64,000 bases of DNA from Myxococcota bacterium (GTDB lineage Bacteria; Myxococcota_A; Polyangia; Nannocystales; Nannocystaceae): contig JBCCHT010000040.1 in assembly GCA_039028615.1 (NCBI GenBank), positions 44,259-108,258 on the forward strand, given 5' to 3'. Shown here piece after piece: positions 43,830 through 45,587 of this stretch. Numbering within the stretch: position 1 is the first letter of the stretch; the number at the start of each line of letters is the position of its first letter. Made by a program: the position numbers and the translations under genes. The notes under the pieces are model-generated. The model ran no database searches, was not told the origin of the DNA, and saw only the letters and a program-made list of their open reading frames with translations.

Positions 43830-43855
43830 TTGACGATGCGTCTTGCATGACGCAT
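43830..43855 (+). promoter_or_regulatory. -35-like TTGACG followed by the inverted repeat ATGCGTC-N6-GACGCAT (putative operator)
   Basis: perfect 7-bp arms at 43836-43842 and 43849-43855. Confidence 0.55.
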
Positions 43856-43867
43856 AGGAAGTTCATC

Positions 43868-43996
43868 ATGACCACGAAGCGACAGATTCTCGATCGGAGC
43901 GAAGGGCTGCAGTCGCAGTGCCATCGTTTGGATTGGAATTTGCCCGTGGCCATGCTGAGCCCAGCCGCGGGCGCAACTCACCAGTTGGGTGAGTAA
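43868..43996 (+). CDS. putative 42-aa leader peptide (uORF) upstream of the EF-Tu paralogue
   Basis: AGGA RBS 8 nt upstream; MTTKRQILDRSEGLQSQCHRLDWNLPVAMLSPAAGATHQLGE*. Confidence 0.45.
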   Translation: MTTKRQILDRSEGLQSQCHRLDWNLPVAMLSPAAGATHQLGE

Positions 43997-44023
43997 GTTT
44001 CCAAACTTCAGAATTTGCGCGCC

Positions 44024-44335
44024 AGAGGGCCCTTAGCCGTTGATTCGGCGGCCCTCTCGGTGGCCCCCGACGTTCGTCGGGCGGTGCATCGGCGCGGCGG
44101 TGGGGTCGGGATCCGAGGATAGGAGCCTGGTCCGAGCCCCCGCCGGAGCAAGCCGCATGTCGCCGGAAACGACAGCGGCCCGAGCATGACGATGGAGCTT
44201 TCGCGAAGGGCGTCCTCGACTGCATGGAGTCGAGCGGCGTCGTCGTGTTCGCCGTCTCGCGTCGGCACGCGGTGGCCCCGGCGTCGTGACCTCATGGAGA
44301 GGTTCGGCGACGCCGGGGCCGGGGCCCACTTTTCT
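44024..44335 (+). ncRNA. structured RNA (5' leader or sRNA) of consecutive hairpins, four with GGA in the loop
   Basis: hand-paired stems at 44024-44057, 44066-44081, 44096-44144, 44152-44179, 44182-44250 (13 bp with 3 G-U pairs) and 44274-44320 (13-bp perfect stem, loop AUGGA). Confidence 0.6.
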
Positions 44336-44362
44336 CGAGTGTCCACAACAACGGATAGACCA

Positions 44363-45511
<1,149 letters not shown>

Positions 45512-45587
45512 AGACGACGATTTGGCCCGGGAGGCGGTGCCCCGAACACGGGGGCCGCTCCCGGGCCGATCGGTTGGTTACGGGGCG

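Follow-up and report, generated by a model that had tools for sequence, protein, structure and literature searches.

A hairpin array ahead of a spare EF-Tu gene in Nannocystaceae is likely the fixed half of a leader-peptide control region

A structured leader upstream of a spare EF-Tu gene

What does a long array of hairpins do directly in front of a second copy of an elongation factor gene? The question is raised by a 64,000 nt stretch of a contig from a Nannocystaceae genome (the source genome, G000), which we refer to as the window, in which the ~530 nt leader of a spare EF-Tu gene has such an array as its 3′ part (Table 1). A first-pass annotation had described six stems between 44024 and 44320, and each of them folds as claimed, both alone and within a 371 nt fold covering the array. 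This fold has an energy of −197.2 kcal/mol and is more stable than shuffled sequence, as the annotation had supposed (z = −4.23; equally stable folds in 0 of 100 and 0 of 300 shuffles), and among 42 tiles of 339 nt placed across the window one reached z < −3. The perfect 13 bp stem of the final hairpin, the run of four Ts and the ACGGA motif are likewise present in the sequence. The simplest reading of ACGGA would be a Shine-Dalgarno core, and AGGA- or GAGG-type purine runs take its position in the tuf leaders of relatives. In a related strain, a single DNA contig spans the whole tuf leader with 66 differences. Two open-reading frames also lie within the array, one from 44186, which is in frame and would give a 59-codon N-terminal extension of tuf, and a short one of 10 codons at 44157, both in a region that is unalignable in relatives.

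Table 1 Features of the spare EF-Tu leader and gene (positions in the window)
Feature	Position	Strand	Basis or remark
Promoter-like site, TTGACG (−35-like), 17 nt, CATAGG (−10-like)	43830–43858	+	Putative; poor −10 match
Upstream ORF (putative leader peptide), 42 codons, 18 of 20 amino acids	43868–43996	+	Homologue of the Arg/Leu tRNA-operon leader
Long helix, start-codon region (43869–43876) with codons 26–29 (43945–43952), plus inner helices	43869–43952	+	Covariation
H0, 7 bp hairpin, invariant CAGTTG loop region, overlaps stop codon	43976–43994	+	Covariation
A/C-rich linker	43997–44020	+	Model: pairs with the 3′ half of the ORF when the 5′ end of the ORF is masked
H1 hairpin	44024–44057	+	Position kept within genus; loop without GGA
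H2 hairpin	44066–44081	+	Loop without GGA
Three stems particular to this species, GGA in the loops of two	44096–44250	+	Fold and genus comparison
H3, final long hairpin, 13 bp base	44274–44320	+	Compensatory changes in base; loop varies
Four-T run	44330–44333	+	Not conserved
ACGGA at ribosome-binding-site distance	44351–44355	+	Sequence; putative role
Spare EF-Tu, 382 aa	44363–45511	+	NCBIfam TIGR00485 above cut-off
Long GC hairpin without U-tract past the tuf stop	45524–45567	+	Probable 3′ end mark

The gene behind the array matches TIGR00485 over its full length (533.3 vs. a cut-off of 522.4 bits) and its product shares 54% identity with that of the housekeeping gene on contig C6 (tblastn). 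Searches for related loci with the spare EF-Tu mostly returned housekeeping tuf, an orthologue with 72% identity was found in a Nannocystaceae record, and in a tree of 105 sequences, which lacks the L016 sequence missed at extraction, 21 form a separate spare EF-Tu clade (FastTree support 1.0). Members of this clade have substitutions in common relative to housekeeping EF-Tu in domain 2, a region that we take to be the binding site of thiopeptide inhibitors. In one relative (G055) the orthologue sits in an array of 18 tRNAs together with a TROVE/Ro60 gene (L158, G055:C15:20000-32000); an upstream ORF of 65 codons and an intrinsic terminator stand at the head of this array. As a separate observation, a conserved 24 nt element with a GGAAAGAC-loop hairpin is found in three other genera (L159–L163 in G007, G006, G022, G069 and G023) immediately ahead of the ribosome-binding site of the spare tuf, occurs in 5 of 301 genomes, and had no Rfam match in the loci scanned.

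Conservation of the hairpin array

Orthologous tuf leaders from three relatives of the same genus also fold strongly (z = −4.1, −5.8 and −8.5). The expectation that the array would be conserved upstream of orthologues held for the positions of H1 and H3 and for covariation in H3, but failed for the middle stems, the GGA loops and the T-run, which is absent from all three relatives. In place of the middle domain (44096–44250) the relatives hold unrelated multi-stem domains of similar stability that cannot be aligned with it. In the base of H3, 52 of 52 cells are paired across the four genus leaders, with changes on both sides at three pairs, a result reached by 6 of 500 shuffles in an alignment of only four sequences. 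The Rfam scan of the window returned no family at gathering score, and across 15 loci it returned tRNAs plus sub-threshold matches only. The general part of the original proposal, a structured cis-regulatory leader of the spare EF-Tu, is thus borne out by H1 and H3 being kept in place and by the compensatory changes in H3.

In four relatives from other genera a tRNA-Tyr gene lies between the leader and tuf, the leader carrying one to four Tyr codons (Tyr codons were also found in leaders without tRNA-Tyr). This position, together with the unalignable middle stems, might point to a remnant with no function of its own, left by a tRNA gene in decay or by a palindromic mobile repeat. However, H3 is retained with compensatory changes, every relative has a strongly folded spacer, and we regard such a remnant as very improbable. 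The tRNA remnant was rejected, as no tRNA match was found in these leaders at E-values up to 0.5, and the dispersed repeat was rejected too, as blastn found no second copy of the array in the genome; the search with the intergenic region gave one meaningful second site, which matches only the front of the leader, upstream of the array.

GGA loops and CsrA

The annotation had gone further and proposed that the array is an arrangement of GGA sites for CsrA/Rsm, or a sponge-type sRNA. GGA lies inside 3 of 10 predicted loops (44096–44144, 44152–44179 and 44274–44320), and in the 44182–44250 domain, with the loop GCATGG, it straddles the border of loop and stem. The shuffle mean is 0.42 such loops and 0 of 300 shuffles reach three, a difference to be read alongside the smaller number of loops that shuffles form (Poisson P ~0.03 once corrected for loop number) and the post hoc choice of the motif. 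These loops, the GGA at the ribosome-binding site, and a csrA gene, which the genome search that had been suggested did find, would suit multivalent binding or sponging of CsrA, perhaps as a function laid over the leader in this species only. Against this, the total number of GGA in the array is ordinary (9 vs. 8.7 in shuffles), and no GGA loops are found in the orthologous leaders of the three relatives from the genus (0/7, 0/7 and 0/6, or 0 of 20) or in 18 leader spacers of the spare tRNA operons described below (0 of 70), whilst 19 other spare-tuf upstream regions hold two in all. No Csr/Rsm family of Rfam matched in the window or in the 15 loci scanned. The csrA gene adjoins fliW, and one study contrasts sequestration of CsrA by sRNAs in gammaproteobacteria with its inhibition by FliW in B. 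subtilis (bioRxiv 10.1101/2020.07.02.184341). Across the genus csrA was found in four of five genomes, the exception being G004, which has the tuf leader and is only 88% complete. A separate sRNA unit likewise found no support, as neither a promoter of its own nor a conserved terminator was found.

The array resembles CsrB/RsmZ sponges and CsrA-bound leaders in its few GGA loops and the GGA at the ribosome-binding site, but differs from CsrB/RsmZ in that it has only three such loops, which are not conserved, has no transcription unit of its own, and occurs in a genome where csrA is paired with fliW. We consider a CsrA site or sponge very unlikely, and the GGA loops are probably incidental.

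The leader front

The likely control element is the upstream ORF with its covarying helices (43868–43996), just outside the region that was first annotated. The four genus tuf leaders all have an upstream ORF of 30–46 codons with a hairpin at its stop, and in all four an invariant TTGAC precedes the start codon by 37–38 nt; TTGAC or TAGAC is also found ahead of 8 of 8 spare tRNA operons. A consensus promoter scan of the tuf leader returned no promoters. If the site at 43830–43858 is the promoter, the upstream ORF would be nearly leaderless. Overlapping the −10-like region is an ATG-N3-CAT inverted repeat (43847–43855), which most of the tuf and Arg/Leu leaders retain and which is a candidate operator.

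The second genomic site found by blastn shows the same leader front ahead of tRNA-Arg(ACG) and tRNA-Leu(CAG). Across seven aligned fronts the ORF helices and H0 comprise 29 pairs, with 93.6% of cells paired and changes on both sides at 12 pairs (reached by 0 of 500 shuffles), compared with 29–39% paired when the structure is slid along the alignment as a control, figures which lean in favour of the structure because it was derived from the same alignment. H0 itself is common to the Arg/Leu tRNA leaders, is 100% paired, and has changes on both sides in three of its seven pairs. Searching 73 genomes of the family with the stop-hairpin pattern gave 10 matches in nine genomes: four tuf leaders, four Arg/Leu operons and two chance matches with two mismatches each. 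Two further Arg/Leu operons carry a variant stop-hairpin loop. In metagenomes the pattern gave 23 matches, one before Arg/Leu tRNAs and 22 near neither tRNA nor tuf.

The codon content of the two kinds of leader differs. Arg and Leu codons make up 8–10 of 29–45 in the four tuf leaders vs. 15–18 of 32–36 in three Arg/Leu leaders, and no enriched amino acid was found in the tuf upstream ORF, which suggests that it probably senses a general slowing of elongation.

Spare tRNA operons

The source genome holds eight spare tRNA operons covering 18 amino acids, each with an upstream ORF: Ser4-Tyr, Thr-Phe-Asn-Lys2, Asp-His, Ser-Ala-Trp-Cys-Val-Ile-Ser, Met-Phe, Pro2, Cys-Gln and Arg-Leu. Spare operons for Gly or Glu were looked for and not found. 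Every one of the eight has a promoter-like site, an ORF of 25–38 codons and a spacer of 94–252 nt. Inspection of several housekeeping tRNA genes showed a hexamer resembling a promoter element 40–80 nt upstream and no comparable ORF. The spare tRNAs are divergent, sharing 54–58 identical positions with housekeeping copies of 75–86 nt.

The in-frame codons of the eight upstream ORFs match the amino acids of their own tRNAs, in seven of the eight significantly. When the peptides are assigned to the tRNA sets in all 40,320 possible ways, the real assignment scores best, and for single operons the P-value for cognate codons runs from 4e-9 to 0.008, except for Pro (P = 0.26; 4 of 37 codons). Over 16 leaders, 171 of 489 codons are cognate in frame vs. 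45 of 473 and 54 of 473 in the other two frames, and of 20,000 permutations none reached the observed match in frame, compared with 13,308 and 6,942 off-frame. The match is confined to the reading frame, which argues that the upstream ORFs are translated. A rule blind to codons gave 30 candidates, which include all eight tRNA leaders as well as that of tuf.

A second leader family, whose loci were chosen by an RNA pattern and not by their codons, gave a similar result. The pattern matched 13 times in 7 of 73 genomes, 12 of these before tRNA operons, the one match inside a long ORF being removed prior to the counts. For the eight loci outside the source genome, 3 of 100,000 permutations matched the observed pairing, and over all 12 loci 37 of 39 tRNA amino acids occur in the peptide cores. 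The composition of the leader peptides shifts with tRNA content between genomes. These codon matches come from related genomes, with tRNA sets read within 1.5 kb flanks and ARAGORN run slightly relaxed.

Leu tRNAs typically have a long variable arm, and spare tRNA-Leu genes of 74–79 nt lacking one were found at G000:C43:37444-37520 (−), L036, L038, L040, L168 and L169, the one in the source genome being Leu(CAG). The first tRNA of the seven-tRNA operon, tRNA-Ser(CGA) at G000:C27:172144-172280 (−), has an apparent insertion of ~55 nt in the D-arm and a short variable arm. Rare anticodons occur in tRNA-Thr(AGT) and tRNA-Arg(GCG) of spare operons (L047, G002:C4; L036, G002:C159). Another locus, G000:C24:74960 (−), has a promoter-like site, a 37-codon upstream ORF and a canonical U-tract terminator, and is modelled to switch on stalling; the start of the gene that follows appears to resemble a tRNA-binding domain. 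Five rtcB-family loci are present in the source genome (contigs C4, C8, C16, C25 and C28), and no comparable leader was found at the rtcB homologues inspected.

Terminators, Rho and modelled ribosome positions

We modelled 11 states of the tuf leader with a ribosome at different positions. H0 is lost from codon 35 onward, and the mean unpaired probability of the linker varies between 0.32 and 0.80 with the modelled position. The pairing probability of H1, H2 and H3 stays at 0.92–1.00 in all states, so that the model offers no route from ribosome position to these hairpins; the 44096–44144 stem is the only array stem that is weakened (0.22–0.98). The energy models do not account for control of the array stems by a ribosome 30–280 nt upstream.

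A U-tract terminator was found in none of the four genus tuf leaders, and Rho was found above cut-off in none of 73 Nannocystaceae genomes, nor was its RNA-binding domain found in the source genome, meaning that neither classical off-switch is visible. The same search found Rho in 8 of 14 controls and in two of five genomes from other families of the class, G045, G053 and G054 being the three without a match above cut-off. Its apparent absence is unusual for large, high-GC Gram-negative genomes. Rho-dependent attenuation was rejected on this ground, and the first 45 nt past the ORF stops are not consistently richer in C than in G. Between convergent genes (from crude gene calls), a hairpin of −20 kcal/mol or below is present in 272 of 358 gaps vs. 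68 of 300 segments inside genes. A run of at least five Ts on either side accompanies just 51 of the 272, which makes long, U-poor hairpins the usual mark of a gene end here. H3, the other array stems and the hairpin past tuf resemble them.

The same sensor could instead act on RNA stability or processing, with the stalled ribosome and the stems shielding the precursor from nucleases and the array serving as a stabiliser or processing spacer. In keeping with this, neither Rho nor a U-tract was found, the array is mostly insensitive to modelled ribosome position, and the Arg/Leu tRNAs also follow long structured spacers (z = −2.1, −4.4 and −4.8). However, convergent genes here often end in long hairpins poor in U, orthologous spare-tuf leaders elsewhere do have intrinsic terminators, and we judge this reading unlikely. 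An upstream ORF followed by a U-tract terminator was found in 5 of 20 spare-tuf leaders scanned (L016, L019, L020, L081 and L090), a sixth flagged hairpin, in L012, being positioned upstream of the promoter. In the model, which was run without a shuffle control, the terminators form with no ribosome or with the ribosome at the stop, and at least one stalled position displaces the terminator in five of six terminator-bearing leaders, namely the five just listed and that of the G055 array (L081 is unchanged).

This stall-on switching also bears on a reversed logic, in which fast cognate decoding (a feast after predation) would give read-through, stalling would shut transcription off, and the long hairpin that the second leader family forms on stalling would be the terminator. 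The most stable U-less hairpin of that family forms in the model when the 5′ part of the ORF is masked and is lost with the ribosome at the stop, and it resembles the gene-end hairpins. Against it stand the modelled switching of the terminator-bearing leaders and the stress induction of supernumerary tRNA arrays and of tuf3 elsewhere (PMC8421152, PMC7157823), and we hold the reversed logic to be very unlikely.

A model for the leader

We consider it likely that a ribosome-mediated leader-peptide region controls the spare EF-Tu, with the array as its static 3′ half, and that this gene belongs to a back-up translation system whose units are dispersed. A tiny upstream gene would probably turn on the spare EF-Tu when ribosomes slow. 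At the level of sequence, the front of this region combines a conserved promoter-like site, an upstream ORF, covarying helices and a stop hairpin, and is common to the Arg/Leu operon. A ribosome reaching the stop of the ORF would melt H0, and transcription would end within the leader, whereas a ribosome slowed inside the ORF would leave H0 intact and RNA polymerase would read through. For each spare tRNA operon the signal would be slow decoding of its own codons, and for the spare EF-Tu a general slowing, such as that caused by EF-Tu inhibitors, toxins or tRNA damage. The long stems would most likely be U-poor terminator or pause hairpins, like the gene ends of this Rho-less family, or would stabilise the tuf message at its 5′ end. 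The relatives on which the model draws are not independent, and the tuf leaders of the genus type number four.

A bolder reading, which we regard as unlikely, is that in Nannocystaceae a stress tRNA array has been split into codon-specific ribosome gauges across the genome, for 18 amino acids plus a general gauge for EF-Tu, read out by termination or antitermination with neither Rho nor a U-tract. In such a readout the stop hairpin, with its invariant loop, might work on RNA polymerase or on some factor and so take the polymerase past the array of long U-less terminator hairpins. On the likelier model of a leader-peptide control region, this chromosome appears to control its spare tRNAs per amino acid and its spare EF-Tu generally, by means of leaders read by the ribosome. 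The mechanisms behind differential regulation of bacterial tRNA genes are described as largely unknown in PMC8421152. In the literature open to our search, largely open-access papers, we found no account of leader-peptide control of tRNA genes or operons, or of a spare tuf. The codons of these leaders vary between genomes in step with what the operons contain. Codon-specific tRNA induction could be tested by simple reporters. The leaders also raise the question of how attenuation works in a family apparently without Rho, where leaders have no U-tract terminators.

Comparison with known systems

Leader-peptide attenuators include those of pheST, ilv and thr, and the Rho-dependent tnaC and mgtL. 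The trp and his attenuators (PMC1183508) share with the system described here a short upstream ORF and, as regards the tRNA operons, cognate codons, as well as what would here be putative alternative pairings around the stop and multivalent sensing. They differ from it in that the targets here are tRNA genes and a spare EF-Tu, with eight operons dispersed in one genome, in that the tuf leader has no cognate bias, and in that the genus leaders have no U-tract terminator. As neither a U-tract terminator nor Rho was found, we do not file the tuf leader as a classical attenuator.

A second parallel is the long tRNA array (L-array). The trn operon of Anabaena is such an array, stress-induced and controlled at its promoter (PMC8421152), and TrcR is reported to be its repressor (PMC10272220). 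Both systems comprise supernumerary, divergent tRNAs, and the relative G055 even holds the spare EF-Tu inside an 18-tRNA array; however, the published control is by a promoter-binding repressor acting on one array, whereas here the tRNAs are distributed over small operons and a separate codon-matched upstream ORF precedes every one of them.

In Streptomyces (PMC7157823, PMC12309360), tuf3 belongs to the WblC/WhiB7 regulon, which ties a second EF-Tu and spare tRNAs to translation stress, wblC is itself under upstream-ORF attenuation, and EF-Tu3 is reported to be resistant to GE2270A. The parallel would be physiological, in the response to translation stress. The architecture differs: in Streptomyces one sensor drives a transcription factor, whereas here each operon appears to have a sensor of its own.
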